DNA of 64,000 bases from Moniliella sp. 'wahieum' (GCA_003971905.1 RSEE01000003.1:806001-870000); one strand, 5' to 3'; counted from the stretch's first letter, positions 1 to 64,000 are shown. The notes: generated by a model not told the origin, from the sequence alone. Numbers and translations: made by a program.

Positions 1-1444
1 TTCTCGGTGATATATCATGCATCATACACATCATGCAACCATGCATCATGCGACATAGCATGCACAGGATGCATGATGAATGATCGACAGGGACTGTCAC
101 AGTTTGGCTGAATCAGCGGGAGCTCTCAGACTGAGCTCTCCGACCCCGGAGCTCCCACTTCCACTTCCTGTCTCGAGCGCCTGGCTCTTTTCCTGTTATT
201 CTGCTTCGCGCCGTGTCCTCGGCGCTCGCTTCTTCCCCACGAACGCTTGCTACATTCCCTTCCCTTGTCTCGGCTCTCGTCCCCCTCGTTTAGAGCTCGC
301 GTAGCGCTGAGCCCCGACTGTGACAGGTATAGATGACCATCGATGAGGTGGAACACCGGCGCTTGGCCAGCCACCCTTATCAGTGATGTCTGGCCATGAT
401 CGGTGAAGCCAAGACCAATAGAGACTGTGCTCTTGCCAGGAATATGGCGAATGCGGGGAAGGGAGATTCCGACACTGCCTCCAAGCCGGGTGGGTTAGCG
501 GCATGGAACACACTTCCCCTGTGCACATAGCCAGACACACTCGGTCCCCATTACTCAGTCTTCAAGCTTCACCTCAGTCCTTAGGTCTTATTAGGTCTTC
601 ATACTCGCTGTGTGTTGGAGGGTACCCTGGAGAGGAACAGTATGACATTCCGATGCGCCTGAAAAAACCAATCCACACGCAGTACAGTATAGGTGAACCC
701 TACGGATGAAGAGCGATTCTCGGCAACGAGATGCGGTTCTCCTTAATGGACCTTGAAGCTTGAACTCATTACGCGCACATGTTTCTCGCAAATGATATAG
801 ATGGCTCCCTTAGGCATGTGCATGATGACTTGGATGTGATTGATCTGCATGGTGGATACCGAGGTAATCTTACGCTGCCGCCTCACTCAGGGAGAGTCGG
901 GACAGCTGCACTTGAGCCATACCAGATACCAGGGCATACCATTGGGACACCAAGGAGAGGAGAGAACAATCGTATCCTTTCCCATCATGCATCATCTGCA
1001 TCACATATCACACAAAATGCCAAGCCTCAGCAGGACTGTTTTTACAAGGCATGACTGTGCCTGCCCTCGATCATCCTCGGCCCGAGGGAACTACCTCGTA
1101 CCTAACACGTAACAACAGAGCACTTCGTTAAGCCCACAGGATCACAAGATATAGAGATGAATCATTAATCATCATAATATGCCAACTACATCCATAGTGC
1201 TCTTTCTTGTTCCGAAAGCACATCCGACGAGGAGCTACAGAGAGAGACGCAGTTATATATATAATGCTCTCCCTTGCCGTGTAAGTTCGGTTATACCCGC
1301 GCCCTCTTCCTTTCTTGTCCACCTCTTTTGAACAACCCCACTTTACCCTTCTCCCAACACACTCTCTTTCCTGCTTCGCTGGAAGCACCGTACCCGCACA
1401 CTCTTTTCCCTACACGCTCTTTGACACGCATACACGTTTTCTCT

Positions 1445-3000
1445 ATGCGCGCTTTTCTCTCCTCCCGTTGCTTGCGGGCGTGATTCTATCATCACTGGGC
1501 TTCGCGGATGCATCCTCCATGACCAAGAGAGGTGTGTCGCGCGCAAATCGGCACAATTTCCTAAACCCACGGGATGATTACCCTCCACCACTGCAAGACC
1601 CCTTCTATCATCGCCCGCACAACCTGAGCCAGTACCATCCCGGTGACGTTATTCGTTCCCGCAAGATCATTCCCACCATGATGGGGATTGAAGGTAAGGT
1701 CGGAGACACCTACCAGATCTTTTACCGTACCACCAACGCCGACGGTCACCCGTCTTCGACGGTCACTACCGTTATCCGCCCCAAGCAAGGCGGGCCTCCC
1801 AAGATGCTGTCTTACCATCTTTGGGAGGATGCTGCTCAACGCGACTGTGCCCCTTCCTACACTGTTCTCAAAGGAAACGCCTCCCCAACGTGAAGGTTGT
1901 CGGTATGTTCTTCTTCCCAGGCCCTTAAATTTAACCTGCTCTTATTCGATTCTGACCTCGACCAAACACGGTTCGTTTACGCATCAACAGGGGATGACGT
2001 GCCCATTTGGTTCCAGTTCCTGCTTTCGCATGGGATCTCGGTAGTAGTGCCCGACTACGAAGGTCCCAAATCAGCTCTCTTCGGAGGATTCACAGCAGGC
2101 TATGCCATTCTCGACTCGGCCCGTGCTGTGCGCAACTTACTCAACTGGCCCGTCGATGCCGAGGTGGCCATGACCGGCTACTCTGAGGGCGCTCATGTCA
2201 CAGCATGGGCGGCGAACTTGGCGCCGAGTTATGCTTCCGACGTGAACATTGTCGGTGTCACCCATGGTGGCACTCCGATCGACATGGAGCTCACCCTACG
2301 CCACTTTGACGGCACCTCCTTCTCGGGCTTTACCGTTGGTGGCATTCATGGCATGATGGCCGCATACAAGAAATTCAAGAACGCCATCAACCGTGTAGCT
2401 CAGCCGGAGCTTCTCGACGACCTCAACGCCATCACCCATCCCCCTGTTTGCCACGCTATCCTTCGTGGCCCCCTTTACTCTAACAAGCCCTACATGTCGA
2501 TGCTCAACATTCCGGACGGTAAATCGCCGTATGAATGGGGACCAATCCGCCACGTTCTTAACCGTGAAACTCTTTGGAACAACAAATCCTCCGTCGGAGT
2601 TGGCTACCCAACTTTTCCTCGCATGATTTACCATGGCGACCGAGACGACGTGATCAACTTTGATGCGGTCAAGGCCTACGTCGAACAACAGTGTGCTCAC
2701 GGTGCCAACATTCAATTCAACGTGTACAGCGCCAACGCTCATACGGCGCCCCAGCTGGTGATCGGCGGCGACTTGAATGCCATGCGCTTTGTTCTTGAAG
2801 TCTTCCAAATCAACGGACACAAGTTCAAAAAGGGTGTCTGTGGCTTCCCTTCCCCGACTCTTCTTAATTTGGGTACCTGGGCGGTCGACGCCATCTTGGG
2901 AGGCGACATTGTCCAAGCATTTGCTGGACTTTCTGGTCAACTCTCTTCCTTCCGGAATATTGGATTTGGCGCGCACGTCAACAAGACCAACCAAGTTTAA
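1445..3000 (+). CDS. Secretory lipase (LIP family, Candida antarctica lipase A-like), 1 intron
   Basis: Signal-peptide-like N-terminus (SLLPLLAGVILSSLGFADA); family motifs DPFY, QIFYRTT, WEDAAQRDCAPSY, VVVPDYEG, nucleophile elbow GYSEG, YHGDRDDV (Asp) and AHT (His). Intron 1903-1990 (GTATGT...CTGAC...CAG). Needs 1-bp corrections near 1452 and 1885 to read ...GNASPNVKVVG|DDVPIWF. Confidence 0.9.
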
Positions 3001-3362
3001 GTTTAGGTCGAGTGCATCTACGTTTTCCCTTTTCTCTTCATCTTTTTGTTAGAAGTGCCACACTCTGTGGTATGAGCTATTGGTATATGCTCAGTATTTG
3101 CTTTTTTGCTGTTGGTGTGGCTCTTCCCTCGTCAAGGGTCGCCTCTGATTACTTGTTAACCCCTGGCGGGTTGTGCATATGAGTAGTAATAAGCATGTGT
3201 CTTACATATAATGGTGTTTTTACATACAGCATTCTCGTTCTCCTTTCTCACTTCATCAGCTTCATCCGACGTGAGTAGTTAGGCGCACCAGATACTACAG
3301 ATCGGAGATGCCTACGAAAGAAATACCAAATCCAAGTCTAAGTATGCTTACAGAAGCTCGAA

Positions 3363-3445
3363 GGTTCCATATTGTAGTTGGTTAGCAAGTAGGATTCTGA
3401 CTCTGTCGTATTCCTGAAACCTGGGTTCGAATCCCAGTGGGACCT
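3363..3445 (+). tRNA. tRNA-Gln(CTG) with 10-nt intron (3401-3410)
   Basis: Acceptor stem GGTTCCA/TGGGACC, anticodon stem TAGGA/TCCTG with loop TT-CTG-A, T-arm CTGGG-TTCGAAT-CCCAG, followed by a T-run Pol III terminator. Confidence 0.93.
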
Positions 3446-3617
3446 ATCATTTTGTTTTTTTCCAAGAACGGCCATCTGCGACTCGACCCTGTATTGACAT
3501 CAATCAGTGCCTTTTTCCACAGTTGGCTCGCGTTTCTACATCGAGTTCAGAGCTCAGAGAGCAATTAGCACACTCTGCTGCCCACCATACACCCCAAGGC
3601 TTGTAGAGCAACTGCAA

Positions 3618-8880: not shown

Positions 8881-9840
8881 TTACCTTCCGCGGTTAAAGT
8901 TGATGGAATACCCGCCACCTTCCTAAGGACAAATCAGTGAGGGTCAGTACTCAGTACCGCGCGCACAAACAGCGTTTCCGTCCTGAGAGTAGTAGGTACC
9001 TGTTGCTCAAAGCCAAAGTCCTTGGTAGAAAAGCCAAAAGGGTTGAGGAACGCATTGGCGGTATCACTCAGTGCTTGCAAGCCCAGCTTTTTCATTCGCT
9101 CCGTCTCCTCTTGCAACGCTTTTTGGGCGCGTGCATCAACTTGTTGCTTAGCTGCCTGCCATTGCACCTTGCTGGCAGGTGTGACCAAAGGCGGGTCATC
9201 GGGCAAAGAACACAGTTTTTCGTAATCTGCATGAGCATCCATATTGGGTCAGAACAAAGCTAGCCAGACCAGACCGAATCAGGCGATCATACCGGCTCGA
9301 GCCTCGTTCAGTTCGGTTAAGCCACCAATTTGCTCGCACGCAGTCGCCCGTCGGTAGAGCGCCTTGACATACAGCGGCTTGTCCTGTAAAGCTGTAGGTG
9401 GCCCCATCCCACCATCGTCAGTCAATATTCAATGACCACGAAAGAGGAGAAGGGATAGTTACCATTCGTGGCAGCCTCTCTCGCCTCGACCCACTGCTTG
9501 GCACCCGAGCTGCAGCAGCCATGTTGGCATACAACGTGGCCCGGAGGTCGCGCGTCGCAGCATCATCGCTCTCTGACCGCACAGGGAGAGCCGCAATCGC
9601 ATCCAAGTACTCCGATTGAGCTTCCGAGTAGAGGCGTTTCTTGAACAGAGAATCAGCGCGTTGTTTGTGTTGCTGGGACTGGGATTGGGATTGGGATTGG
9701 GGTTGGGCGTCAGTGGCGCTGGCGGGCGGCTCGGGGGCAGCGGGGGAGAGGGAGGTGTCTGTGGGCTGGTGGACTTGGGCTGAAACGGGAGGGCGGGGAC
9801 TGGGCTCTGCGTTTGCAGGCGGAGAGGGGGCAGACGCCAT
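8881..9840 (-). CDS. Tetratricopeptide repeat protein, TTC1/TPR1-like
   Basis: TPR helices (HKQRADSLFKKRLYSEAQSEY; LYANMAAA; YVKALYRRA) and the TTC1-type C-terminus ANAFLNPFGFSTKDFGFEQQ|EGGGYSINFNRGR*. Last intron 8923-8999; further introns likely near 9245-9290 and 9390-9460. A (GGGATT)n repeat at about 9675-9705 encodes a QS tract. Confidence 0.8.
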
Positions 9841-10650: not shown

Positions 10651-12253
10651 CTTGCCCTGCCGGGGCGGCAGACGCCTGAGCTGAAGCATAACCCCAGCTT
10701 GAAGTGCTGTAATTCTACTCTGCTGGTGTTTTGGTCCGCTGCCAATCAGTCACACACCGCAACCGGTCGCCCATGGCCAGGGCGATGGAATGGCTGTCGG
10801 TGGGGCGCCGCTGGCGGCCCCATACGCATGCGTCGATCTAGGTCGATCTTTCTGTTTCTGGTAATTGGAGCCAAGCGTTTCGCATCGCTTTGATGGCTGC
10901 AGGAAGCTTGAGCGTTTGGTTTATCAGCTGGCTCGACTGTTCCATGCTCTTGGTTCCCTATCTTACTGCTTACTAGTAGTAGTTAGTGTGGGTACCGGGT
11001 ACCGCTGCGGGTGTTGAGATGCGTGTGTGACGTGTGAGACGTGTGAGCTGCTGACGCACTGATGCAGCATGGACGGGATGGGTGGCCGGTGGTTGGGTGG
11101 GGTGGTGTGGAGGAGTGGCCAGTGTGCACCAACAAGCTCACGCCAGCTGTGTGTCGTGTTCAACGCGTCAACGTTCAACCCACGCACTGGTCGACCTAGG
11201 AGAATATCGATAGCCTCTGCTCTCCAGAACTCCGATTGCGGACGAAGTACAATGTGCTTGTGCTACTTTTCTATCTGCGCTCTCTCAGCTCTATCTCGGA
11301 AGGGGGGTTCGCACCCGCTCGCACTCGTTGGGAGCGTGTGAGATGTAGGACCTGGATATGCTCCCGACGGGCCCTGGAAGCTGAGTGCTTCAGCACGGTC
11401 CTCCTACTCCTCCGCAGCTGGCAGCAACCTTTCGTGGGACTCAGCCGGACCACGAAGAGTCACGTGACATGTGACGGGCAGCCGCGGCACATCTACTCGA
11501 GCGGGTGACACAGGTGACGTTCCACCTGTCACCATGTCACACGTCACCGGAAGGCGTGGTGCGGGTCATCAAACATCGACCATCTGGATCATCGACCAGA
11601 TGAGGATGGGCACCAGGAATGCCAGGCTGGCATCAGAGCGCACAGGAATGGAAGATGGAGAGACCAGGTGGTTTGAATGGGGCTTTGCGGGCGGTGCTGA
11701 GACGGTGTGGTGCTGGCTTGGCAGTGCGCGCCAGACGAGGGCAGACGGGAGAGAGAAAAAGGTCGCGGGCAGGCTGCGATCTCGGACTGAGATGTGTTTG
11801 GAATTGCAGAGGAGGCTGGCTGTTCTTCGCCTGGTCACGCATGGCACGTTAGGCGCATTACGCAGTGCGCGCGTGTGCCTGGCTGCCGCAGGCGCCGGCC
11901 CGTCGGGGAGTGTGCGACGGCGATTGCACATAGCCCCAGCGTTGGCCGCCAGCCACAGGCGCGAGGCAGCAGCACCGCACCCGTCTGCTCGCCCCGGCGT
12001 CTGCCGAGCCAAGCACGCAGGCAGTCGCAGTGGCCGGTGACGACGGGATTGTCGGCGACTGGTGGGCGCCTGGTGGGCACGGCCCAGTCGCGGTGTGCTA
12101 CGGCGAAGATGCAATGTTCAAATGCTGCATCATGCATCAGCCCGTCGCTGCACGCGAGTCACTAAAAAAAGGACAGCGTCGCCTGCACTCACGCTGTGCT
12201 CACCTCACCCTCACGCCCAGCTGAGCACTCACCAGCACCAGCTGCCTCTCGTC

Positions 12254-12322
12254 CACTCCACTCCACTCCACTCCACTCCACGCCGCCTCCTCCTCCTCTT
12301 CCTCTCCTCCTCTTCCTCCTCC

Positions 12323-12353
<31 letters not shown>

Positions 12354-12398
12354 CTCTCTCCTCCTCCTCCTCCCCCCCCTCCCCCCCCCTTCCCTCCC
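12254..12398. repeat. Polypyrimidine microsatellite tract (CTCCA)n / (CTC)n
   Basis: Directly visible; lies immediately upstream of the ATG at 12430. Confidence 0.9.
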
Positions 12399-12429
12399 AG
12401 ACGATGACGCGGCGCATATCCTAGCTGCC

Positions 12430-15400
12430 ATGCCACCCCCGCCGCCCCGCCGCCCTCCTCCGCGGCCCCAGTCCGTCTCCGCCTCCTCCGACTCGGACGA
12501 CGACCCCGACCCGCCCCCCAATCCCGAGCCCCCGCCCGCCCCCGCCGCCCCCGCGCCACCCGCCCCGACCTCACTGCCCTCCGCGCCCAGTTCAAGCAGA
12601 AGCTGCGCCGCCAAGACGAGCATGAGGAGCGCCGCCGCCAGCGCGCCGCCCTTCCCCCCACCCTGATCCCCACGCTCTCTCCCCGATCCCGCTCCCCCCT
12701 CAGCCACAGCCTCCCAGGCCGATTCCGCCTCCGACTCGGACTCCACCTCCTCTTCCTCGGACGACGAGGCTTCCGCCGCCATCGAGCTCGACGGCCGACG
12801 TGTGGAGCCAAGCCTTTTGCTGTGTCTGTGAGCGTGAGATCCCCCCAGGCACGGGCGTGCCTGCCAGTGGCGCGCCGTTGGCCTGTGAGGCTCCCGACCC
12901 TTCGCGCTCCCACCCTCGCCCCCCTGCTGAGGCCGCCACACCACCCCCAGTCGCCAGCTCTCCCCTCAGTCCCTCTGCCGATGCTGCTCCTCTCGGCCCC
13001 AATCCCCTGCCGTTATGGAAGAAGCAGCCCCGCGGCCCCGTCCTTCCCGCCATGCGCCCAGCTCTTCACGCGAGTCCAGTGCGTCTCGTCAGTACGTTGC
13101 TGGCACCGGCGTTGGCCAGCCTTGGCTCGTGCGCCCTCGGCTCAGTCCTTTATGTCCAGCTCCGTCGACGGGCGTTGGAGGCAGCATTGGCCCACGTTGG
13201 GACAGCAGCGCACTTGCTTCGCAAAGTGGGAATGGGACGCGGTGGCGTCAGAGCGTCATAGGAAATGGCGCTCCACCCCAACGTTCGTCTTCTCGTCCCA
13301 CTCCGCCTTTTGGTCCGCTCCACGTCCGCTCCCCTCTTCCCACCCCAGGCGGAGCGACGTCGGCTTCGGGATCTCATTCGGTCCGTCGTGCCATGGCCCA
13401 CGACATGAAGCGCGCCGCGGCTCAATCGCATCGCGTAGCCCCTCATTTCCGAGGCATGTCGGGACGAGGAGGTACGTGGGTCGCAAAACTTTGACCGGCT
13501 GGGGGCCTGTACTCGGGTGCGCCCACTCCTGGGTACGGTGGGCCGAATGGATCGCATGCTTACTTGCCCTGGTCGGACACTGCCTCAACGTCAGCGGTGC
13601 CCTACACCTACCAGTCCTACCATCCACCTGCCACCCCTGGCTACAACCAAGCCTACAGCTACTCTGGCCATCAAGGCACGCCCGCTACCGGTAGCTGGAC
13701 CTACTCTGCCCCGCCCTCTGCGGGGCTGTATGGCCACGCTACGCCGGGTACCCCCAGCCTCTTGCGACTGGTGCGCCCAAGAACCTCTCCTCCCCCTCCC
13801 GCTCTGATGGCGCCGGGAGCACCACGTCGGCCCACTTGGGCTCGGGGGAACAACCAAGCTTGTCCCCCCTTCTTACCGTCTGCAGCCCGGGTCCCGGACA
13901 CGGACCAACTCGGGCAGAGTCTTCTCCCTGGCCCTGTACCTGCGCAAGTGGCAACAGATTACTTTGACCGTGCTGCTCCTGGCAATGTGCGTCCTCCGTC
14001 GGCACCGATGAGCGGACGGATCGGTCCATTTGCCACTACTGGACCATGTCCGCTCGTTCCCCGTCTTCGGCGCGATCTAGCATCTCGCTCTGTTCTGCTG
14101 CTGCCTCCCCTTCCCGATCCCGCCCCTCTCGTCCTCCATCTGTCACGGGTAGCATGTTACGCACTCGATCGGATGAGGAGTCTGCAGAGGCCGACGCGGT
14201 ACGCGCGCGGCCAGACGTCGCTAACACTGGCCCAGGGTGGGAATGTGAGTTGCCTACCCCGCAGGGAGGTACAGATCCACCTTCTCGCCCCTGGGCCAAC
14301 TCGTGGGAGGACACGATGCAAGCCGCGACGAGCGAGTCGGACCTTCCTCCTGTGAAAGTCCGACAGCCTGGGCAGAGCAGTAGCGGAGCAGGTCGCGGTA
14401 CTGCACCCCTTGGTCACAGCCCCAGTCAACCACGTACGGCCTCGGGCCCTCTGGGTGTGGGCACAGCCACCAGTGCGCGTGTGGCACCTCCAAGTACCAG
14501 TTTGTCTACTGCTTGCGCGTCCTCCTTTTCGCGCACGCTCGTTGCGCCCCTGTCTCACTCTCCCGGGCTGCCCGGGCGGTGGGCTCGGGCGGACGATCAT
14601 CGAATGCGGGTCTGGGAACCAGTTGGGGCGCTTCGCAGTCCCTCTCTCGGTCGCTTTCCTGTTCGTTGGGATGTTCAGGCGAGTCAGACCACCAAACGGT
14701 GCTGGGGGCACAGGCGCCTCCCCAATTGTCCTTGTCCCCACCACGCTCTTCGACTGGGCAAGACCGATCCGTATCCCCGCTTCCTCTACTAGTGTCCCTT
14801 CCGCACGCTCCCTCTCTGGCCCTAGCATGAGCACGAGCCAGATCAAGTTGATTCACCCGTCTGGACGTTCAGCCCATCTTTCCCCTCTTCCCGAGTCGGC
14901 ACGGGCCCCAGGCGCGACGCGCAGCCTTCGTGGTACAGGCGGGTACGCTACGCGTTCGTCCAGTGTTCCTTTGGGTCCTGGGCCGTCCTTATCGTGCTCC
15001 CGTGCTCCGCTCGCCTCCTTCTCGGAGCACGCGGAAGATTTGGTGCCGAATGAGAGCGATGGTTCACCGGTCGAGGTGGCACGGGTACCCTTTCCTGCTC
15101 TTCCCTCGCACTCGTCTCCATCACCTTCTCCGTCGCCCGTCGGTCCACGCCCCAGTCCTCCCCCACAACCACACACCATGTCGGCGCTCGAAACGCTTCG
15201 CCAGACCCACCGGCGTGCCTCTTCAGCCCCCCCAGTTCGATCCAGACTGGATTGAGCGGATTGAGTGTAGTCTCGCCGCGGGCGCGGCCGCTGTCGACGC
15301 CGCGTGATGCGCCGACCAGTTCAGTCGAGACGGACCAGTCGGGCGGGTGGTGGCGCGCATTTGTTCCGGGTCATTGGGCCAGTCGGCCCGAGTCACTAGC

Positions 15401-16962
15401 GAGCGGCACTAGTGGTCGCTTGTTTGCCCCTTCGCCCCCTCCGAGTGGGAGCATACCTAGTGTCCACCTCTCGGCGCGTACCGCCGGTGCGGGGGGCTCT
15501 GCCGGGCCCTCGGTTCACCGCTCTACCCGTTCGCTGCAAAGCTTGGCCTCGGACTCGGCATCGTCGCTCGTCAGTACGGATACCTCACCTCCGCCGCCTG
15601 AACAGGACCGAAGGCTAGGTGGTGCGGAGCCTGCGCCGGCCCCGGCTAAGGGCCGGACAGGGCCCATGACGAGTCTGGTGCGTCCGCATGGGACGCGGGC
15701 GGTGCCTGCGTACGCGACTGCGACTGGGTTGGGCGCGGGCATTCCCGGGGTAGGAGAGGAAGGGATGGATGGTGGACACTTGCACCCGTTAGGCCCTGGG
15801 GAAGGGGTAGATGCAATGCAACTTTGGCGCCGACTACAGCGACGGTCCTGGGCCGAGCCCGCTCGTCTCCCTCCCGTCGGTACCGCACATCGGTCGGCCG
15901 AAGTGAGCGGGAACACGACGCCGCACCATCCTGGCTCACGCTCCACCACGCCCGGCCCAGGTCCGGCCCCTTGGCACGACGGAATCAGTTTACGACGTAC
16001 CTTGACCCCAGGCGTGATGGACAATCATAGTCGACGTACCTCGGTCGTGGTATCAGGTGACCAAGTTACCTCGCGTCCTCCGTCCCGCCCACCGTCCCGA
16101 CCAGCCTCGCGGGGCGCCTCGCGTCCCCCCCCCGCGCTGGCTCGGTCGTCACAGGCTTCCACCCTGGCTCGTACGGACAAGCCGGGCAACTAGCCACTTC
16201 GCTCCCTCGTCGCCCAGGCCTGGGATGGGGCCCTCCACGGTCCTATGTTCCCCCCCAGCCGGCCGCGCCGGGGTACGGGCATGGTGCTTGGACGGGCGAA
16301 CGGTCGCCTTATCCGCCTGCCCCTTGCCCTCCTCCCTCATGGGGCTGGGATGGCGTGGCAACCCCAACCCTGGCCGGAAAGGGAGGCGTCGTCCTCGCCC
16401 CCCTCCCCCGCCCGGTCCCGAACCGATGGAGACCAAGCCGCCGTTGCATCCCCATGCCCATGCCCATGCTCATGCCCATCCCCATGCCCATGCGCACTCC
16501 CATTCGCAGTCACATTCGCAGTCACATTCGCATTCGCGCTCGCTCCCTGTGCACGACGTGTACGATGATGCGTGGACCGCAGCGCTGGGCCTGGATGGCA
16601 AGAAGGAGCCACGGGTACGTCGGGCATCGGAAACCCCCCGTTCTCCACCTACGTTTGCTCGGAAGCAAGGTGCTTTGGCGCCCACCCCCCCGCATCCGCA
16701 TCCGCATCCCCATCCCCACCCGCACCCGCACAAGGCTATCACCATCATTGGCGGGTTTGACCAACTTACCGAGCACCCTGCCGAGGAGGCGCAGGAGATT
16801 CGACGTGATAATCCCCCCCCCCCCTCCTATTTCCCCCTACCCTCTGTCCCTTTTATCCCTTCTTCCCTCCCCTTCTTCCCTTGCCTTCTTCCCCTCTGCA
16901 CCTCTGCCCCTCTGCCTCTACCCCCCTCTGTTCACATTGGTGCGCCCCCTCCTCCTTGTTAG
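12430..16962 (+). CDS. Large Pro/Ser-rich low-complexity hypothetical protein (many frameshifts; boundaries uncertain)
   Basis: gccATGc start after a CT-rich leader; a chain of overlapping + ORFs with consistent S/P/A-rich composition; acidic tracts, an FCCVCEREI CxxC motif at about 12815-12840, and HA/HP repeats near 16450 and 16690. Confidence 0.5.
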
Positions 16963-18117
16963 GACATTGGACTTCCTTGTTTGCATCTCATCCCCGGTTT
17001 CCCTCTTCTCCATGCACCCCCGTCACTTGTTCCCCGGCAAAAAAATGTACTTCACGCGCATTGGCAGGCTACACGCGCCGTCGTGGTCCCTACGGTTGTA
17101 GCCACTTTTTTTCCTGAGCACCAGCCAGGCTTGGCGAGGCGAGGCGAGGTGCATGAAGCCTGAGGCTTGAGGTGGTAAGCGGCTTGCCTCCGTTTTGGAA
17201 GGGTTGGGCACCTTGACGAACTTATGGACGCGTTCTTGAACGTTGCACGGTGAACGTTGATGGTTGTACGGTGACGCGCGCAGGATCGATGCCATGCACA
17301 TTACACGCAGCACTGTACGGCGGCGATGGATTTAATGATTGGGGTCATGATCATGACCCGACCCAACCTCGTAGCCGGTTGGGGGATTCGGCCTCGGGCG
17401 GGGGGCGGCCAGTTGAACACGTTGAACGCTCCTCCCCTACTTGACGTTGGACGTGTGATGCGGCATGTCGCATGGACAGGCTGCAGGCTAGGGTTGAAAG
17501 GATGCGTGTTGGGGGACAGACGATGTATAGGCTAGCTGCATGCTTTCTCCTCCTACGGGCTGTGGAGGAACAGTATAGTAATACTATGCGCCAGTGAATA
17601 ACTGTTACCCTATGTTATCTGCATGTTGGAGCGAGAGATAGCGTGGACGGTGGACCGGTGGACAGCGTGGACGATGGAACGATGGACCAGCGGACGAGCG
17701 GAGAAGTATGATATATGAGCCGGTGGATGTGGGGGGAAAGATGATACCCCTGGACCGTCGCCATCAGCACGAGGACAGGCTGTGGGGCGGAGGGCGAAGT
17801 GGTGATGCTGAAAGGGAGGTGCGATTCATTTTCAGGCGCTGCGCTGCGCTGCCTTGTGCACTCGGCCCGACCCGGCTACGGCACTGGGCAGCAGGGTCAC
17901 GCGTCTAGTGCTGCATGTGATTCCGAGCCCCTGACCGGCTGCGTTGGAATCGGGCATCCTGCCACTCTGCGGCCGGCAGGACGAGCGAGCAGGACAGGCC
18001 CGTCATGCAATGTGGGGTTTTTGCCAAGCCACGCTATATGCCCCGTCCCACCTCGCCCTTCTCTCTGCCACACGACCAACACCTTCTCTCCCGCCTCTTC
18101 CGCCCCTCCCGCGCTTG

Positions 18118-45663: not shown

Positions 45664-46269
45664 ATGGTCCTCGACACCTTTTGTCGATCGAAAGGCGAGG
45701 CCACCGTAGCCCAGAGCACTGCCTCGTCCTGGCCATCGAGCAAGACGTGCGTCGAACCAGGCAGACAGTCGACCCCTGGGGCTGCTTGCCTTTGGAACGG
45801 GAAAATGCATGCTTGGCTTTGCCCATCGTCTCTTTGATACTACGGGACCGAATGGTGAATTGCGCTTCCCGCGAAATTGGATCCTGCACCACAGCGAGAA
45901 ATCAGTTAGTGGCACAACAACCGGATTTCCTTCTAAGCCGTCCAGTCAAGACGTACAACGGCAACCCCTTGCTCAGTGCGCCTAACAAGCCCTTGGCTTG
46001 GGAAATCTCGAGTGAGCGTGCCTCCGAGGATACGAAGCGCGGATCGAGCGGCGCGAGCTGAACGGCCGGATGATGCTTGACATCCCCCGCGCCCCAGCGG
46101 CGGCGGCGGCATCTGCTGCTGCGGGATGCACGGGCGCGTGGGAGGTGGAGGCGTCAAAGGATGGGGGGGCGTCTTCTGTGCCTGGCGCCAAGTACGGCGG
46201 CAGAGCGTCTGGCTCGTGAGGGGTCGTGACACTGGCGCTGGGTGATGTGCTTTTCTTGAGGATGGTCAT
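45198..46269 (-). CDS. Tandem family copy 3
   Basis: Diverged paralogue MTILKKSTSPS...; intron 45884-45956; ends NAQW*. Confidence 0.75.
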
Positions 46270-47448
46270 GGTGGGCGGGTGGGATGACCGAGAGGGAGCG
46301 CACCACGACGGGTTAAGAGGGGCAGAGCAAGTGATGAGGTGGGCTCGGAGGGACGATGTACATGCAGTGGGGGCCCTGAGGGACTGCGACTGGGTTGGAA
46401 CAGGGGCGCGTATAGTCGTGTAGCGCGAGTTCGTTTTCGTGTTGACTGCGCGGCGCGCTTAGCGGGGATGGGACGTTTGATGGTGGTGCGATGGATTAAT
46501 CTGCCCGATACAGCTCCATATGGACAGCCGGTCGCACCCTTGCCCTGCCGCACCCGGATCCCATCTCTCCAGTGCAGAGGACTCCGCAGCGGACAAGATG
46601 CCTTGTTCCGCCGTCTCACACAGGGGCGTCGTGCATCGTGGATGATGTCATGGAGAGATCGTCGTCGCTGCACGATGCATGATGCATGACGAGTGATGTC
46701 TGAGTTGACCCAAAGTCGGCAGGTGCAGACGACTGCAACTGGGATGCAAACGTACCCCGGCTAAACCACGTCTGTCACTCTCAAGGATGTCATCCATCAT
46801 ACATCATGCATCATGCTGCTCCGACAAGGCCTTCTTTCTTTGGCTCCAGTGGGCGACAGGGATGGCAGGTGTGCGAACAGGGGATGGGTTCCGCTCTCTC
46901 CTTCGTCCGTCCGCGTCAAGCTTGAACGGGAAAACACACGTATTGGACGCGCCTGGCCAAACACCGCTCCGTGCCGCCGGCATGCATCCAGCAGAGCTGT
47001 TGGTGGGATGTGCGCCGCGCATTCGTACTGTTGACACCTGAAGGTTGTTCCGCCAGAAAGGGTTAGCGTATATTGCTCTGGATATCGATGGATTCTTCAT
47101 TCAGGTTGTATGTGGGATAGTGCCTTATACTATACCAGAGGGAAAAGCAATAACCATTCATCACACCCTTTACAACACGCGAGATGAGAGATAGACAAGT
47201 GCAAGAAGATATCTTATGTTGTGTATTAGAACTAGAGGACCACCGAGCCTATGGCCCGGTCAGCTGGGGCTTCAACCCAGCTTGGTGCTTGGTCGCCACC
47301 GTAGCCAGCGTTCCACAGTGCATCACCGAATTCGAGGGTATCGCTGTGGTGTCGATCAGTGAAATACCTGGAGGTCAGAACGAGGACCGTGGTGATAGTT
47401 GCATTGGGTCGAGCGGTCTTTCCCGCTCGGAGTGGGGTAACGGTGTGG

Positions 47449-48540
47449 TCACCATTGGGGATCAGGTAAGGTTCTCATTGCAGGAAACATAATAGCGCCA
47501 GAATTGTGGCTTCGCTGGCGAAGAAGTTCACGGGGCGTGGGCACTTCGAAGAGTAAGAGGAAAAAGGGCACCAGGACCATAACCAGTTCATCCGCCCCGG
47601 AGCCAAACGCACCATCATTGTGGATTCCGGTTGGGTGTAGTCGAACCCACCTTCGGCGACCCAGTCGCCTAGCGCCACCCCGGACTCATCCACAGGGGTC
47701 ACCGTCCACCGTCGCGTAGCAATCTGCCGACGGAACCGATAATATACCTCATCCCTCGTAGACCCTGGGCCCTTCTCCGGGCTCCCAGAGGGCGAGCAGG
47801 TTAGGCGCATATCGCTCGCACCCCAACGAACTCGATCGGGAATGGGACTGACCAGTCGTGCTCTTCCTTGTCCATAGGCCAGCGTGGCATTGAGGAGCTC
47901 GGTCTCTTTGTTTAGCATGTTCCGCGAGGACTTTTGTCGATCTAAAGGCGAGGCCACCGTAGCCCAGAGCACTGTCTCGTCCTGGCCATCGAGCAAGACA
48001 TGCGTCGAGCCGGGTTGCCACAGTCGACCCCTGGGGCTGCTTGCCTTTAGAACGGGAAAAGGCTTGCTTGGCTTTGCCCATCGTCTCTTTGATACTGAGG
48101 GACCGAATGGTAAATTGCGCTTCCCGCGAGATTGGGTCCTGCATCGCCGTGAATAGAAGTACAAGGTGGTCGTCGTCAGTGATGCACAACCAGCCGGATT
48201 TCCTTCTTTCCTTCAGTCAGATACGTACAACAGCAACCCACTTGTTAAGTGCGCCTAACAAGCCCTTGGCTTGGGAAATCTCGAGCGAGCGTGCTTCTGA
48301 GGAGACAAAGTGGGGGTCGAGCGGCACGAGCGGCGAATGATGCTTGACGTCCCCCCGCGTCCCGGCGGCGGCGGCAGCTGCTGCTCCCGCGGGATCCAAG
48401 GGCGCGTGGGAGGTCGAGGCGTCAAAGGATGGGGGGACGTCTTGTGTGCCTGGCGCCAAGTACGGCGGCAGAGCGTCTGGCTCGTGGGCCGTCTCAGCGA
48501 TACTGGCGCTGGGTGGTATGCTTTTCTTGAGGATGCTCAT
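47449..48540 (-). CDS. Tandem family copy 4 (most diverged)
   Basis: MSILKKSIPPS...; intron 48139-48228; ends DPQW* after one frame correction. Confidence 0.75.
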
Positions 48541-49423
48541 GGTGGGCGGGTAGGATGGCCGAGGGAGCGCGCCATGAAGGACTAAAATAAGTAGAGCAAG
48601 TGGTGAGGTGGGCTCACAGGGACGAACATGCACTGGGGGCCCTGAGGGGTGCAACTGGTGCGTTGGAACGGGGGCGCGTATAGTCGTGTAGCGCGAGTTC
48701 GTTTTCGTGTTTGACTGCGCCGCGCGCTTAGCGGGGCTGGGACGTTTGATGGTGTTAGTGAAGTCTGCCCGATATCTGCAGAGATCCACATGGTGGGCAG
48801 CCGCTTCCGGACTCCACATCTCCAGTGCAGCGGGGCAACGAGCATCGCCTTGCTCTATCGTACCAGGCACAGGGGCTGTGGATGATGTCATGATGACGAT
48901 CGTCGTCGCTCCACATTCCTGTGCATCAGAATTGATGCAAAAAGTTGGCAGGTGCGGACGACTAACTGGACTGACTGGGTATGTATAAGTAACCCGGCTA
49001 AACCAAGTCTCTCAATGTGCATCTCATGCATGAGAGGGGCCTATCTCCTTGGCCCCGGCTGGCGAGACGGATGGTAGATTGCGCGGACAGGGCATAGATT
49101 CCGCTCTCCCTTTCATTTTCAGATCGCAACGATAGTGAACGTTGAACGTTGAACATTCAACGTAACGTTCAACTTCAACGTTCAAGCTAATGTCCAGTTG
49201 AAGCTTCGAGCTTCACAGCTTCACCGGTCACGATCACCCATTGGCACCGCCTGGGCGCCACCCCATTGATTGCTTAGCGCTTATTGGGTGGTGATGGATA
49301 TCTCCCACATCGTCCCTGTGTATTTCCTCGCCTTCTGCCCCTCCTCCCAACCACGCTCACTAGTCATTGGCCAATCGCGCCTTCAGCGCTGCCATGAACA
49401 CCGTCATTCCCTGTTGAGGCATC

Positions 49424-51388: not shown

Positions 51389-51964
51389 ACGTGGATGTTT
51401 GCCATACCAAGGTGCCTGCTCATCCCTTTCTACCGTACCGCCAGGATGGTCACGCGGGACCATCCTTTCGCTTTGCCTTGACTTCTGTCATTACTTTCTG
51501 CGTATTGCTCTTTTTTCTGGTATCATTCCCTTTGTATACCTCTCGAAGGCCCGGGGCGGCACGATGCCTATTTTTTGTGGGGATTCACTAGTGACTAGTG
51601 ACTAGTGACTGGTGTGCGCTGCGTAAAGACGTTTGTGCTTGCGCTATTTACGCTTCCCCCAGCTCAGCTTTGTGCTTGCTCCTTCCCATCCATCACCACC
51701 ACCACCTGCTACGATATATACCTCACTTGCCTCATCACCTCTTCTCTCTTGCTTATGGTTTGTTCCCGTTACATATGCTTTTCTGCTGCTGTTGATGTGC
51801 TTATCCTTATCTGTGTTTGCATGCCCTTGGGGCGAAATTTGCCTTGCTCTCCCCTCCGGCACGTTCTATCTGTAGCAAATGGGTGCATAGACGTAGGCAT
51901 AACCTAACAGTAGGCCTTGGAAGGGGTGAATCACCTGTGTGGGGATATCAAGGGGGACAAAAAA

Positions 51965-52052
51965 CGAATCCTGCCGGGGTCGAACCGACGACCATTACCA
52001 TGACTCTCAGGCGAAGCCGGAAAGTAACACTCTACCACTGAGCTAAGGATCC
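51965..52052 (-). tRNA. tRNA-Arg(CCG) with 16-nt intron
   Basis: Reverse complement: acceptor GGATCCT/AGGATTC, A-box TAGCTCAGTGGTAGAG, anticodon arm TTACT-TT-CCG-G...GGTAA, T-arm GTCGG-TTCGACC-CCGGC, T6 terminator. Confidence 0.9.
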
Positions 52053-55000
52053 TTGTGCCGGTTTCACGGGCCGTGGTAACCCAGTACATTACGTGGCCAT
52101 TATGTGAAAACAGTGAGAACAGTGCTGCTGTCAATTGGGGGGAAAAGCGAGCTGTTCCACTTCTCTTTTCCGTCTCGCCTCTCCATTTATCTCTGTGTTT
52201 CTTACTCCCGACTTGTTCCCATGATTACTACTGGTATAGTATACTGTGGATTATAATAGTTCGAGGAGAAGAGGATGCGCATGCGCCAGGGCACGGGTTG
52301 CTCGGCTACACCTGGCAACGCCAGCAAGCCCGTAGTTTTATACACCCACAACATAAGGGATGCATACCGAGATGGACAAATCAATAACCGAGAGATATAA
52401 GGTGTGCAAGTCGTCGTGAAAGTTGTCGTGCTGTGGAAAGAAAGTGGCAAACAAAAGGTGTAGTGTGTGGATGGACGACTTCTCATGGCGTCTTGACTGA
52501 GCCAGCCACATAGGCCATACACCACCCGTCATTTTGTACTTGATGTTCTCCGGTCATTACGATAGGAGGGCAATAGCAAACCGGGCTAACGCCCTTGCGT
52601 CTTCCACCACGTATTCGCCCGAGTTGCCTGAGGCTGAAAACGTGACGCCTCGTACCATCTTCATTTGTACCACGTTGTCTGCCCATTCGAGTGAGCGAGT
52701 GGGTACGGCAGCCGCTTGACGCTGACTCACGATCCAAACTTGAACATGGACCACGTTGCTCATGTTAGGGAAAGGGGATATATAGCTGCACTCGGTGACA
52801 AAAGAAACGTCCGGGAGGGGATATAGAGGCGAATATGCACCCACCAACAGAAATGGCTCCAGTGAGGGGCAAATAGCAAAAATCTGCAAGCTGCTATATT
52901 ACCAGCAGTAACTCTCCAGGTGGTGTGCGGAAAATCGTGCCCAGCAAGCAAAGGAAGGGTAGTGGCCGGTGACGCGAGATGCGGAAGCGTATATCTGCTG
53001 CCTGAAAAGAACAGGGTCAATGTGGTTAGTAGGATCAAATCAGGAGTAAATACAGCAAAGAGGTGGGGGAGGGGAGAGCTTACGAAGAGCGGGAGCGCGT
53101 CAGAAGCGCGATGGTGGAGGCACGGGAAGAAGAGGCTACTGCTGCATGGGGCAGAGAGAGGGGAGGACGACCGGGATGTGGTGAAACTGATGAGAAGTAG
53201 AGGGTGAGCTATTAATTAGTGGATGTCGACCATGGAATTCGGTATAGGATGGGAGTGTTGGGGATATAAGCGTTCTTCTTGTATGATGGCATATGCAAGT
53301 AACAGGTACTAATGGTAAGTAAAGGCGCATTATACGTGTGGCCTGTGCTGTGTTGCCGCACCATACGTCTCGCCTTCAGGCACACATGGAGGAGTGTTGC
53401 GGCGAAGGTACTATAGTCTCAAAAAAGCGTGCGATGATCGTTGATCGATGATCGATGATATGAGCGTGAGCTATATGCAAAACGGAAGAGACACACGGGT
53501 CCAAGACGTTCTTTGTACAGAGAGTGTATATATACACCACATAACGATGCCGCCCAGCCGATGTCGTCACATGTCATTGCACTCGACTAAGAGATCTGCT
53601 AGGTATTCCGTAGAGACTAGACACCTCGTTATATCCCTCTTTGCCATACCAGGAGACGGATGCTGAAGTGTGTGTGGATGCCATACTTATCACATGCGGA
53701 TGTGTAAGAAGATGAGAGCATGCCACAGAATCGCATAGACCCGTGATTAATTTGCCACACAAAAATGTAATTTTGGTTAGTATGGTACTAGCCCTGCCCG
53801 GTGCGGTGTGACCCGGTTTGCTCTCTCATATCAGATCTCATATGCAAGGCAGTGGATAAGGATGAGAACGCCTGAAACTTGTCTCGTTCAGGCCCGCTCA
53901 CAGGCACGCAACGACCCGCATGTGTGCGGCGCAGGCACGCGTTAGTCTCGGCAACCTTGCCAACAGCATAAAACAGTATTATATGTTGCCCCTACTAGCA
54001 ATTAGTAACTACGATATAGTAGTGGCATATAGTACCGTGTGGTGTGTAGAAAAGATATGGAAAAGCACCCTAGTACATGTGGCCATATCATGCATCATGT
54101 ATCAATGACCACTGTTGCGAGTGGTGCGTCTCGGACGTTTCGGCCGTTTGCGACGTTTCCATATACCCTGCCCTGCCCTGTCCCCTTCGCCCCCTCCCCC
54201 CCCATCGTGGGCAGCTTAAATACTGAATCACTCACCCTTTTTGGTCTCTGATGTTTGAAAGGGCACACTTCGTTTGCAACCAGGGACCATCGATGAACAA
54301 CAATGTATCATGGGATGTGGATGCATCAATGATGCACCCGCCTTTCCATCACCGCGGACAGTATACGAGAATGTGCCGGCGCTACTGCCCCCACACCTTG
54401 ACTCAAATCATTCTCTCTTTGACATGTTTGACAGGCGCCACACAGGGTGGCATGGTGACATGTGACACCTGTCACTGTGACATCGTGACAGGTGCCAAAA
54501 TCTGAAAGCCGGTCCAAGCGATAAACTACTTTTATTCATAGAGCTTAAGTAGGGCTGTGGATCAAAGAAACTAGAGAAAGCCGAGCGCAGCTCCCTCGTC
54601 CACACACACGCTTACGAATATTCACACAGCGGAGAAAGGGCGAAGAAGTAAGTCAAGCTCCTGTTGCGCATATCAAAAGACTTTATGCCTATAACCCTTT
54701 TTGCAGAGGTCAAGAGGCTGATATACTTTGAGAAGAACATCTCAGATCTCTCGGTCAGGGAGGTTATGGTCACCGGCCGCCTGTCCGTCTTCGAAACAGG
54801 AGAGGATCGAGACCCATGTAAGATCTGACCGGCAACTTGGCCTAAAAGAACCATTATGTTCGATCCGGCTTTACCCCTATTATATGTTCTGACCCTGGCG
54901 GGCTCCCCTCTCTTGGAATGGATCCATCATCTTATTATCCCTTGCTTGGCCCAACACGTTATATGTTACGCGTTACAAGAGGATTACCGACGCCTTTACC

Positions 55001-55869
55001 GCTTGCCGCGTATACCTGTTATACTACCAGGCTTTACTTCTGATCCGTTAAGAGGCCGAAGGAGACTCTGTGGAGAGAGATCTCGATCACATTGTACTCT
55101 TAGTGTTGGGACCCGTTTTGGCATTGAACACCGGGGTCTCTTCGGCGCAATACAGGCTATGCATTTGGTTTTTTGCCGGCTATATACCAGCTGTTCTAAG
55201 ATATAACCCCAATAACGTCCAGACCTACTTCGTTTGAAGCTTGAAGCTTGAAGCTTGACTGCGCGCCGGCAGGGCAGTGCAGCTGAGAGATGTCGTGTAC
55301 AGGGGGGGCACCAGCCACCGGGGACCGTATAGGGAGGAGGCCGGATAGGGCGTGGTATGCTCGCAGTTCCCGTGCCCGGCAATCAAGTGTTACGGTGATT
55401 ACGGTGACCGGTTCGGTAACCGGGTCGACATCTAATTCTATTGTGGGGCCGAGGCCCTGAGGCCGGAAAGACAGGGAAAGACCCTGCCGTCGCACCCTGT
55501 AACCGGTGACCCATACGCCACATGTCGCATGTCACATGTCACATGTCACACGTCATGCACCATGCATCGTGGTCACCTAGCCACTAGTCACTGGTCATGC
55601 GGACATGCAATAAAAAGGTCATGCTGATGCAGCTGATGGTAAGGGGTTTTATGTCGCCGCGGTGTGGAGGACGAGAGAAAAATGATTAAAATGAGGAAGA
55701 GAGAGATGGTTGGTGTACTAGTATTCCAAAAGGATTAGTATTCCAAGATGACATGTGACATGTGACAGGAGATGGAGATATGGGGCAAAGGATGCAGATC
55801 ATATTTGTGAGACGAGGCGAAAGGAGGCGAGATTGAGGTATATATATGCCTCGGAGAGAAGAGACCTAG

Positions 55870-61066: not shown

Positions 61067-62774
61067 CTTCTGCTTTATAGGTCTTCCTGTTCCTGCCGTG
61101 CCAGGTACCGGTTAGCCTGCTTTGCCTTTACCCTGTTTTTACCCTCCCTTACCCTGCTGTGTTCCCCCTGCTCCTCCCTGTCCAACCCACCCCTGTGCGC
61201 TCTGATACCTCTGTTTTCATTATCGCCTCCGGGAACTGAGCTTACCCGTTCGTTCTGGCTGTCCTGCCCTTGTCTCGGGCGGCAGCGCAGCTTGTGTGTG
61301 TCTACTGGTAGGTAGGGTGTCTGTCGTTGCCCGCTCTGTCTGAGCACGATCTCATCGTTCCTCCTTTGGCACCGTATGGATGCGTTCTATGGACAGAAAC
61401 CCCACACGTCAGTAGTACCCATGACATAGATGTTTGGAGGGTGCGTATCGTTGTCCCGAGTGTTTGTTGGACGGGGGAAGGGCGGTCAGTATGGGCCATG
61501 GGCCATGGGCCATGCGTCATGCACCATGGTATGCACGATGTAGTAACACAGGGCCTCGCGTGCCGGACCAAGGTCGGCAGGTACCAGGTTCACAGGGAAC
61601 ACATGCTCCAACGTTCTTTTTTGTAGCGTGGGTCCTCCAGCCACGTTCGAATCTAGTCCCGACCCAGTTCCAGCTGTAGCAGTTTGGTTCTTCGCTTCCA
61701 CGCACCCAGTCTCTGTGAGCCCGAAGGCTTCAGACGCGTTACTACGGCCCCCGGTGCGGGCAGCCTTGCGGCCTTCGCAGTCCCAGCTGAGGCCGCTCCT
61801 TGTCCCTAGTTCCGCTCCGATCCACCAACTGGAAGCAGTTGACGGGCGAGATTTGGAACTCTATAAGGGATTGTACCCCTAACCCCCCGGCTGGGTCGAA
61901 GCAGTTGACAGGGCCCTCCCATGACGCAAACGGATTAACGCGGGCATGATACCCAGATAGGTAGAGAATGGCTCTCGTCTTGAGAGAGATCCACATACGT
62001 TGTAATGATCCAGGCCGAAGGCAAGGGTCCCCGCTCCACACGTTCGTTTTGCCTGGGATTCACTGCGGCGAGTCAGAAGAGCAGGCCCTCGTAGTATGAG
62101 CCTCTAAATAGACTATACGGAGATTTACATTGTGCGCACCTTCCTCCTCGGTTCCGCAGTGGCAGGTGCCTACGAAAGGCGTGTGCTGAATGAGGTGGAG
62201 AATAGGGAATGTGGTACTGAGGAGAGGTACAGGCTATGAGAAGGGTGGGGCCTTATATTGCCAATGAGGGTACCGGGGAACAGAAGAACGACTGGGGTGC
62301 AGTGATAAGAGATGTGTGTCTAATAGATATTATCACGCAGGATGTGGCGTTTTGGGGTCATCGCCGCAACAGCCCACCAGGACTGGGTAGGGACGAGGCG
62401 AAGAAGAAGAATGGGCACCAGCAGGGATGCCGTGGTCCGAGCAGAGTGTAACCCAGTCTTCATTCCTGGATCAACTTCTTTCTCTTCTCTCGCGCTTTTC
62501 CCTTTTGCCATATATGTGGTCTGTGTTTGTCCGCCCCCGGAACAATCATGTGCAGAAAGACCGTAAACAGTAAATGTCTAGAAGTACATCTGCATGTATA
62601 GTCTCACACCACTGCTACAATTGAAAACAAATACGGCAGAAGCCTCTACAACCACTTAAGTGCTTGTCTTTTAAGCATGTCCTGTGTGACATGTGACGTT
62701 CGGTTCTATATGGTGCGAACAGGGCCAAGGAATGAGGCTTACGTTTAAGCTGTTTAAAAACCCTAAGACTCCCT

Positions 62775-62829
62775 ACTAAGTACTAAGGCCTAAGGGGCCT
62801 AAGGCCTAAGGGGCCTAAGGCCTAAGGCC
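62775..62829. repeat. (CCTAAGG)n palindromic heptamer array
   Basis: Five CCTAAGG units, two separated by GG, preceded by ACTAAGT and ACTAAGG. Confidence 0.9.
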
Positions 62830-64000
62830 CGATGCTGATTTGAGGAGAAACGGCAGATTGTGGCAAAATTGTGGTTCGCGCGGGGATAAAGGAGAGAGAG
62901 AAACCTTAATTGAGACATGTATACCCGGAATGAAGTCAAAGTGGAAGAGCGAGAAGCGGAAGGCACGAAGCGCGAGGCGCAGATGACTGTGTTGGAGTGT
63001 TGGAGGAAGGATGCAGCGAGGACGGGTTCAGATAAGGGAAAATGCCATGCAGAAGTGGGCGGGGAAACCATCAAGTGAGTCATGCGTGACGCGTATGACA
63101 TGGGAGCCAACTTCAAAGTCTGTGTGGTTCCAATAAGGAAAGTTCAACATGCCACCAGAGTTGGACAACATTCCTCTGATAGCGCTTCTCCTCAGGGGCC
63201 TCAGGGCCTTAGGCCTCTTCACTACACACACAACCCCCCAAAAAGTTGTTTCAATCTTAGCATGTTGTATCCGTTCAAAAAAGAACTTTGTGAAGATCTT
63301 TTTAGAAGCGCGAGAAAATAGAAAAGAGCATTGAGGAGACTGTGTTCGTCATATGGCCGTCGGTGATCGATGACGGTCACTAGGTCACTGACCGCCACAG
63401 TTCCATACACGCACAACCTCATATATGTCAGTGTTACTCTCTAGGTCTCTCTCAGAGTTTAGACGTCTCCGTCACTAGCTTCACTCCATAATCGGCACAC
63501 GCGGAACTTACGCACCGTGTCCGCCAAAAGTACATACATCTTTTGTGTTGTGTCCCGTGAGATTTTAGGCCTTAGATATGTGGAAGGTCGGCTGCCCTCT
63601 GTTGTGTTATGAGCGCAGAGCATGACATTGTTGTCGTTTTACCTGCCTGCCACTGCACAATTGAACAGGCGAGGCAGGTGGCACACTGCCCCCGTGCGAA
63701 GGTGGCGGAGCACGGGCAAATGCGTGATTATATAACAAGCAAGAAATAGTCTTGTCTCGTTATTTTCGCTTTATATATATTCCAGCGGTCCGCACGGACA
63801 TTGCTGTGGTTGCCGCCCCCCACCCCCCCGTGCAGCAGACCACCGCTGGTGTTGATGCGAACACCACTGCGCTCAACATGTCAACTGCCACCATCGCCAC
63901 CGCCCCCTACTCGCCCAGTTCCCTCACCCCCACGGCGGCCTCGTCCCTCCAACACCGTCGACTAGTAGTACTAGTACACCTGCCGGTACACCCAACCCTG

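Follow-up and report, generated by a model that had tools for sequence, protein, structure and literature searches.

The stretch analysed here, hereafter the window, comprises 64,000 nucleotides (nt) of Moniliella sp. 'wahieum' (GCA_003971905.1 RSEE01000003.1:806001-870000, positions counted from its first letter on the single strand shown). Its non-coding DNA carries two related features: short arrays of 7-base-pair (bp) odd palindromes built as XY-TNA-Y'X', and a more elementary 10-mer in which two copies of the same T-N-A triplet enclose a palindromic tetramer. All counts given below come from this one window of one genome, and metagenome contigs served as controls. The G+C content lies between 50 and 67% across the window and short tandem repeats are abundant. 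The products of its open reading frames (ORFs) include Hsp70, a PEP4-like aspartyl protease, a Sec14/CRAL-TRIO protein, adenylate kinase and a COQ5 methyltransferase, together with two LIP-family secretory lipases, an M20 peptidase, a class I/II aminotransferase, a WD40 protein, TMEM208 and a RhoGEF. The aspartyl protease has relatives in Tilletiaria, Tilletia, Sympodiomycopsis, Microstroma, Ceraceosorus and Exobasidium with 73-78% identity, while its top matches reach 95%. On this basis the source was treated as a basidiomycete within the Ustilaginomycotina, probably an exobasidiomycete. Between 41107 and 49000, four paralogous gene copies without Pfam match, each about 2.05-2.25 kb long, are arranged in tandem on the minus strand.

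The heptamer arrays are spread over the whole window. A TGA-TATA-TCA-TGCA-TCA chain opens it (8-24), with more CATCATG/CATGATG units up to about position 100, and two-unit arrays of the type (TCA GTAC)x2 and (TGCA TCA)x2 are found at 8944-8957 and 12126-12139, respectively. Upstream of the Sec14-like gene lie CATCATG CATGATG CATGATG (26481-26501, that is, TCA-TGCA-TGA-TGCA-TGA) and, at 26991-27004, AGTGACT x2. Between these two TNA arrays we observed two further period-7 runs that are not TNA-based (26707-26789; AGA+GGCC and TTG+GGCC). CATGATG x2.6 (34655-34672) is followed by two more 10-mers (34763, 34797) that immediately precede the adenylate kinase ORF, and GTTGAAC/GTTCAAC units with two ACGT 10-mers (37318-37347) are located just upstream of the minus-strand COQ5-like gene. 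ACTCAGT x2 (37752-37767), the irregularly spaced GCTCAGC c GCTCAGC ... GCTGAGC (37902-37929) and (CATG TTA)x2 (40563-40576) precede the paralogous gene cluster. Within the cluster, six TGA copies with a period of 7 and the spacers TGGA, TGCA, CGCG, CGAG and TGCC (42589-42633) have an identical paralogous copy at 44640-44684, and four TTA copies with the same period (42938-42965; CCGG, CCTG, CCCC) are matched at 44988-45015. A third paralogous TGA array (46674-46703) is two units shorter than the array at 42589 and has an inverted partner, a TCA array at 46790-46816, with 93 nt between the arms.

In the remaining part of the window, a GTTGAAC/GTTCAAC array degenerates towards its 3' side (49136-49186) and TCA-CTAG-(TGA-CTAG)x2-TGA, equivalent to AGTGACT x3, occupies 51585-51610. 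A GATGATC array (53435-53459, TGA-TCGA units) and CTTGAAG x3.6 (55234-55258, TGA-AGCT units) are followed by TGTCACA x3 with one degenerate unit (55528-55556), whose inverted partner TGTGACA x2.7 (55749-55767) lies about 200 nt away. Near the end of the window, ACTAAGT and CCTAAGG units with a TAA centre and GTAC and GGCC spacers (62774-62829) are in part 9 bp apart, and CCTCAGG gg CCTCAGG g CCTTAGG (63190-63213) is irregularly spaced as well. Two arrays are exceptions to the TNA rule while still being odd palindromes: GGGTACC x2.1 with a CNG centre (10990-11004) and ATGGGCC x3.4 with a GNC centre (61491-61514). A variant of the rule was seen at 17154-17170 (TGA-AGCC-TGA-GGCT-TGA), where the spacers are reverse-complementary to each other, so that an 11-bp odd palindrome is centred on the second TGA.

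All arrays named in a first-pass annotation, made from the sequence alone, were recovered at their reported positions or a few bases away, using Tandem Repeats Finder (TRF), exact period-7 tandem runs with a cut-off of at least 14 bp and the marked-up sequence. Among the 36 exact runs, the unit is a rotation of an odd palindrome in 20, compared to about 11% expected by chance according to our own tally of rotation classes. The centre of these palindromes is TNA in 18 cases, CNG and GNC in one case each (the two exceptions above) and never ANT. The rule proposed in the first-pass annotation, a TNA centre with free but symmetric flanks, does hold. The share of odd palindromes climbs with run length, from 20/36 (at least 14 bp) through 10/13 (at least 17 bp) to 4/4 (at least 21 bp). 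Exact runs of other odd periods gave 29 odd palindromes out of 101 for period 5, which is close to chance, none out of eight for period 9 and none in the single run of period 11. Arrays hold at most six units, and many different units are used.

The annotation had also suggested comparing TNA with other odd-palindrome centres against a Markov background, and only TNA proved enriched, an outcome that speaks for the observation and not for its refutation. We counted 242 TNA-centred palindromic heptamers, where first- to third-order Markov models predict 160-186, while heptamers centred on ANT, CNG or GNC were at or below expectation. A weak residual excess persists outside period-7 runs (192 versus 152). 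Chains of TNA with a period of 7 are far more frequent than expected (28 versus 3.1 with at least three units, 11 versus 0.1 with at least four), and chains with periods of 5, 6, 8, 9 and 10 stay at background level. Within the period-7 chains, 36 of the 71 spacers are palindromic tetramers (1 in 16 expected). In heptamer runs without TNA, a hand tally found palindromic tetramers at chance level. The boundaries of the exact runs, likewise tallied by hand, showed no clear phase relative to the unit of the kind that a target duplication leaves.

The elementary unit is smaller than the heptamer array. The window contains 66 copies of TNA-palindromic tetramer-TNA in which both triplets share their middle base, compared to 1.6-1.9 expected copies. 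The same definition (a trinucleotide, a palindromic tetramer and the identical trinucleotide) applied to the control classes ANT, CNG and GNC returned 2, 4 and 10 copies versus 1.3-1.7, 5.2-5.5 and 6.1-6.4 expected. TNA copies around palindromic spacers of 2, 6 or 8 bp were not in excess (8 versus 6.5, 0 versus 0.4 and 1 versus 0.0, respectively). Altogether 68 maximal TNA-palindromic tetramer-TNA loci were found: 57 isolated 10-mers, scattered over non-coding DNA from 562 to 63574, nine loci with three TNA copies and two with four. Since 57 of 68 loci are isolated 10-mers, the arrays are a minority and the visible part of a larger class. That is, the arrays on which the first-pass annotation had focused are real, but they are not the main object.

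All 16 palindromic tetramers are used as spacers, and a comparison of 44 oriented instances revealed no conservation outside the 10-mer. The filler is therefore indifferent to sequence, which is what a base-pairing step would produce. At the central position of the triplet, base usage follows the background, with G or C in 77% of 10-mers versus 71% of background TNA. Among 81 pairs of adjacent TNA copies, the middle base was the same in 66, complementary in 11 and otherwise different in four; TNA duplication is therefore direct. Mixed TGA and TCA centres, which had been taken to mean that neighbouring units are inverted copies, are the minority case. A palindrome-TNA-palindrome arrangement without outer TNA was found only twice, versus 45 isolated same-N TNA-tetramer-TNA loci, which shows that TNA is what is directly repeated on the outside and that the palindrome fills the space between. 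By the same count we rejected a 4-bp palindromic target duplication around an element-derived TNA. In its layout, the locus resembles a short insert flanked by a 3-bp target-site duplication.

The filler is related to the bases next to it. We scored how far identity at lag 7 extends to the left and right beyond TNA in the 45 isolated same-N 10-mers. Of these, 21 show identity for at least 2 nt past TNA on the left side and 17 do so on the right, where we estimate an expectation of about 7%. The most frequent (left, right) extension states are (0,2) and (0,0) with six loci each, (2,0) and (2,1) with five each and (1,2) with four, while (2,2) has a single one. The total extension beyond TNA has its mode at 2-3 bases and reaches at least 4, which amounts to full 7-base identity, in 10/45. 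A typical locus is thus a 12-mer such as CT-TCA-AG-CT-TCA: a 5-bp direct repeat with a 2-base gap that is reverse-complementary to the adjacent two bases. In line with this, TNAab is repeated across a 2-bp spacer 81 times (3.0 expected), and 64 of these repeats have the reverse complement of ab as their spacer, whereas TNAab direct repeats at other spacings number 5-28 each. Often, then, the filler combines the dinucleotide adjoining one TNA with its reverse complement, so that the locus looks like an added perfect odd palindrome made from TNA and the two bases on one of its sides. Plain 7-bp tandem duplication does not describe these loci, as it needs seven bases of lag-7 identity, seen in just 10 of the 45. 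The variant in which palindromic targets undergo a 7-bp duplication was rejected given the rarity of the (2,2) form (1/45). Decay of longer arrays was ruled out as well, since the shortfall is too regular while the inner ten bases stay perfect.

The signature is restricted to non-coding DNA. Taking Pfam-supported ORFs as a proxy for coding sequence, only one of the 68 loci falls inside them although they make up 17.8% of the window (binomial P = 2.6e-5); TNA sites in general lie there in 354 of 2434 cases. The resulting 10-mer density is about one per kb of non-coding DNA, a roughly 40-fold excess. Several loci are located directly upstream of start codons, namely 34763 and 34797 (adenylate kinase), 37318 and 37336 (COQ5), 23147 (Hsp70) and 26483 and 26993 (Sec14). 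Two pairs of arrays face each other in inverted orientation with 93-200 nt between the arms (46661/46790 and 55525/55749). The tandem paralogues at 41107-49000 furthermore provide a view of copy-number change. Copies 1 and 2 including their spacers are nearly identical, while the other two are divergent. One homologous position in the spacers contains four heptamer units in both copy 1 and copy 2 and two in copy 3; in copy 4 there is only a short related stretch, where the alignment is weak. As paralogous spacers differ by four versus two units, the loci change in 7-bp steps, much like microsatellites.

To compare this pattern with other DNA, metagenome contigs were scanned for four T(G/C)A triplets split by three W-G-C-W tetramers, which returned at least 121 loci. 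Among the matches listed, 65 seeds had palindromic spacers throughout, 46 had non-palindromic spacers throughout and 10 were mixed. This is only a slight excess, since palindromic and non-palindromic tetramers are equally likely per spacer by chance. In the flanks of 49 metagenome loci (at least 4 kb, among the matches listed) we found 0-3 palindromic spacers each, versus 36 of 71 spacers in the window. We therefore rejected the idea that the TNA-palindrome pattern is a universal property of heptamer arrays. Heptamer arrays are common, but DNA in general does not follow the TNA-palindrome rule, which belongs to this genome or lineage. As a side observation, five metagenome loci on unrelated contigs (L002, L036, L064, L066 and L074) are long heptamer arrays whose units, for example TGATGCT, are not palindromic, and part of these contigs hold many more period-7 runs, resembling the bacterial heptamer-repeat phenomenon.

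One exact small structure at about 40-fold excess is the kind of signature that usually points to one enzyme and one repair route. We tentatively favour, though at somewhat less than an even chance, the reading that the 10-mers are scars of a staggered break directed to TNA by a nuclease of the PIF/Harbinger kind, followed by fold-back repair and later by reiteration and slippage. A recurrent event would strike T-N-A in non-coding DNA and add 7 bp. In such an event, a 3-nt staggered cut at TNA and subsequent fill-in would produce the direct TNA duplication, and a fold-back or hairpin step would add two bases and their complement, leaving the palindromic 4-bp gap. We infer the fold-back step from the filler, which usually equals two adjacent bases plus their reverse complement. 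Each event would leave two TNA sites 7 bp apart and thereby regenerate its own target, so that repeated events together with slippage could extend loci into XY-TNA-Y'X' arrays. A candidate for the enzyme would be a PIF/Harbinger-like nuclease, active or domesticated, whose gene lies outside the window. The first-pass annotation had likewise proposed a symmetry-making step at TNA, such as nick or hairpin repair; some step of this sort is required, and it fits the direct duplication of TNA and the often templated filler. Its literal version, excision footprints of transposons, fits poorly with 16 different fillers and a window that holds neither a transposase nor an element with terminal inverted repeats (TIRs).

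Several observations weigh against the scar reading. Transposase domains were detected in none of the 327 window ORFs of at least 90 amino acids. A TIR element with matching TNA flanks is likewise absent from the window, where such a search gave two weak matches versus 1, 9 and 14 for control flanks. PIF/Harbinger excision has been reported to be precise, with matching duplications never both left behind (PMC4561436). In 13 of the 45 isolated 10-mers, identity extends less than 2 nt on both sides, and a clear relation between filler and flank is missing there. Moreover, the combination of a 5-bp direct repeat with a 2-nt inverted copy could be derived from no single known repair pathway: hairpin, snap-back and template-switch schemes were worked through on paper, and none yields a same-N 5-bp repeat plus a 2-nt inverted copy without ad hoc steps. 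Finally, the whole case rests on one 64-kb window.

Among the alternatives, hairpin-assisted replication slippage alone survives best, but we consider it unlikely. Here, heptamers that consist of a 6-bp palindrome plus one base would form hairpins in flaps or nascent strands, escape flap removal and expand, and no site-specific break would be needed. Hairpin-forming repeats expand more readily, and both the growing share of palindromic units with run length (20/36, 10/13, 4/4) and the different unit numbers of paralogous loci (4 versus 2) are what such a process would give. Yet it offers nothing to separate TNA from ANT, and this separation is complete (18 versus 0 arrays, 66 versus 2 ten-mers). 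When single-strand folding of 3-unit arrays was predicted with DNA nearest-neighbour parameters, TNA and ANT units came out equal (-3.2 and -3.4 kcal/mol) and CNG and GNC units folded more strongly (-5.2 and -5.6 kcal/mol). The exclusive use of a 4-bp spacer also argues against slippage, since palindromic spacers of 2, 6 and 8 bp are without excess. At least two full head-to-tail copies are seen in the TNA-palindromic exact runs of at least 14 bp, but 57 of 68 loci comprise about 1.4-1.7 copies. Most loci are thus 10-12-mers with lag-7 identity below one unit and are not duplications of whole units. In addition, the flanks of array-bearing metagenome contigs show no such excess.

We regard it as quite improbable that the loci are selected cis-elements, i.e. 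protein-binding or structural signals of promoters and untranslated regions such as symmetric dimer sites, initiator-like YA steps or frame-independent stop codons. The position of many loci just upstream of start codons (adenylate kinase, COQ5, HSP70 and Sec14) would suit such a role, as would the return of identical heptamers at several loci and the inverted pairing of some arrays. The compact genome, however, places nearly all non-coding DNA near a gene start. A shared base-specific recognition sequence was not found: with 16 spacers in use, a middle base at background frequency and nothing conserved outside, no one protein could read the 10-mers, and a single transcription-factor motif is excluded by the use of every palindromic tetramer and every middle base with free flanks. 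Inspection of the locus list gave no consistent orientation relative to nearby genes, and the correlation of filler and neighbouring bases fits an origin by copying rather than a motif. The TNA-only polarity, the 4-bp spacer and the 16 tetramers thus bear out the statement of the first-pass annotation that neither simple slippage nor a single transcription factor would be sufficient.

Classical excision footprints of TNA-duplicating transposons or miniature inverted-repeat transposable elements (PIF/Harbinger or CACTA), with the 4 bp representing the two terminal bases of each inverted repeat, are very unlikely: they would account for a direct TNA duplication around a short palindromic remnant, and TNA is the classic Harbinger duplication (PMC12477816), but the fillers would call for at least 13-16 element families that differ in their terminal dinucleotides, the filler follows the host flank and not a constant element end, neither element nor transposase is present in the window, and Harbinger-type excision is reported to be precise (PMC4561436).

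Returning to the scars, the signature itself is real and highly specific, and there is a fair chance that it stems from a new endogenous mutational process. A more far-reaching version is rather doubtful, though a little less so than slippage alone: the lineage would possess an endogenous, so far undescribed insertional mutation process in which non-coding DNA is broken again and again by a TNA-specific nuclease, e.g. a PIF/Harbinger-type transposase that is active or domesticated. Each repair would leave a 7-bp symmetric scar, and palindromic heptamer arrays would be seeded and grow in promoters. The process would act as a built-in generator of promoter tandem repeats and might equal the '10-bp repeats' of Ustilago maydis. 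If the loci are scars, they would represent a new sequence-specific indel signature in fungi, show how single-copy DNA can give rise to short tandem repeats in the absence of slippage, and allow a direct read-out of a TNA-cutting nuclease activity that possibly belongs to a domesticated transposase. If they are selected instead, they would constitute an unusual structure-defined promoter element. Neither TNA-centred palindromic heptamers nor the 10-mer were described in anything that our literature search returned, although the search left out most subscription papers and does not establish absence in print; PMC8120014 and PMC4824034 likewise yielded nothing.

Some features of the window stand apart from the TNA loci. 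The two LIP secretory-lipase family genes (1285-2997 and 18814-19902, both on the plus strand) are 16 kb apart. The Hsp70 domain is split across two overlapping ORFs in different frames on the minus strand (20882-22965; profile positions 1-360 and 359-549), which suggests an intron or frameshift near 21300-21500. On the opposite strand (20675-22692, plus), strong Pfam matches to 'NAD-specific glutamate dehydrogenase' (PF10712) were obtained, which we attribute to the known, spurious family that arises antisense to Hsp70 rather than to a real gene. Calls at 3362-3446 (plus), 40806-40896 (minus) and 51965-52052 (minus) comprise tRNA-Gln(CTG) and tRNA-Leu(CAG), both long enough for introns, and one odd ARAGORN call with a 4-base anticodon loop reading. 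Low-complexity repeats at 12252-12744, 16447-16924, 18434-18519 and 31525-31673 include (TCCAC)6, (CCT)33, hexamer and 12-mer arrays, (TCTCC)13 and (GGAT)27; part of them sit in long ORFs without Pfam match and may encode repetitive proteins.

Among known systems, PIF/Harbinger elements come closest, with their TNA target-site duplications (PMC12477816). In mPing duplications any base can take the middle position, and cleavage has been proposed to leave 3-nt 5' overhangs (PMC4561436). The window loci share with them the direct T-N-A repeat, the free middle base, the polarity of TNA and not ANT and the symmetric context, and 3-nt staggered cleavage would match. However, only a 4-bp palindrome and no element separates the TNA copies here, whereas PIF/Harbinger elements are reported to excise precisely. 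The 10-bp repeats of U. maydis are numerous and intergenic and were interpreted as putative transposon footprints in a 2012 study, in the words of the citing article (PMC4081816). They resemble the window loci in length (about 10 bp), number and intergenic location, and protein similarity places the window in the same fungal subphylum. The window 10-mers may be the same repeats.

Heptanucleotide arrays of bacteria (e.g. Rehm et al. 2015) have little more than the period of 7 in common with the window arrays, although they too are intergenic and sometimes occur as inverted pairs: they are bacterial and long and consist of one non-palindromic G-rich unit without TNA rule, while here short arrays with many different units lie between fungal genes. 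With Hsp70, a PEP4-like protease and Sec14 as fungal neighbours and at most six units per array, a bacterial heptamer array was dismissed. Promoter tandem repeats and microsatellites are similar in having short promoter units whose copy number varies between homologous loci; in contrast to them, the units described here obey a strict sequence-symmetry rule and most loci contain fewer than two copies. Excision footprints of Tc1/mariner elements consist of TA, three element-derived bases and TA. Like the window units they are 7-bp odd palindromes with symmetric ends at the break, and their middle base takes one of two complementary values. Unlike them, the Tc1/mariner footprint has a constant, duplicated outer TA and an element-derived centre, whereas in the window the central TNA is duplicated and local templating supplies variable outer bases. 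Given these variable outer bases and just two cases of palindrome-TNA-palindrome without outer TNA, the loci are not footprints of the Tc1/mariner type. P-nucleotide additions at hAT, Mutator, Transib or V(D)J breaks provide a zero-loop palindrome made from the two terminal bases of the flank and their reverse complement, just as the filler does; to judge from one paper's title, these transposon classes reportedly resemble V(D)J recombination. Their junctions are heterogeneous, with 5-9-bp duplications and no TNA rule, while a 2-bp spacer dominates in the window (81 versus 5-28). We group the signature with break-repair footprints and the birth of tandem repeats.

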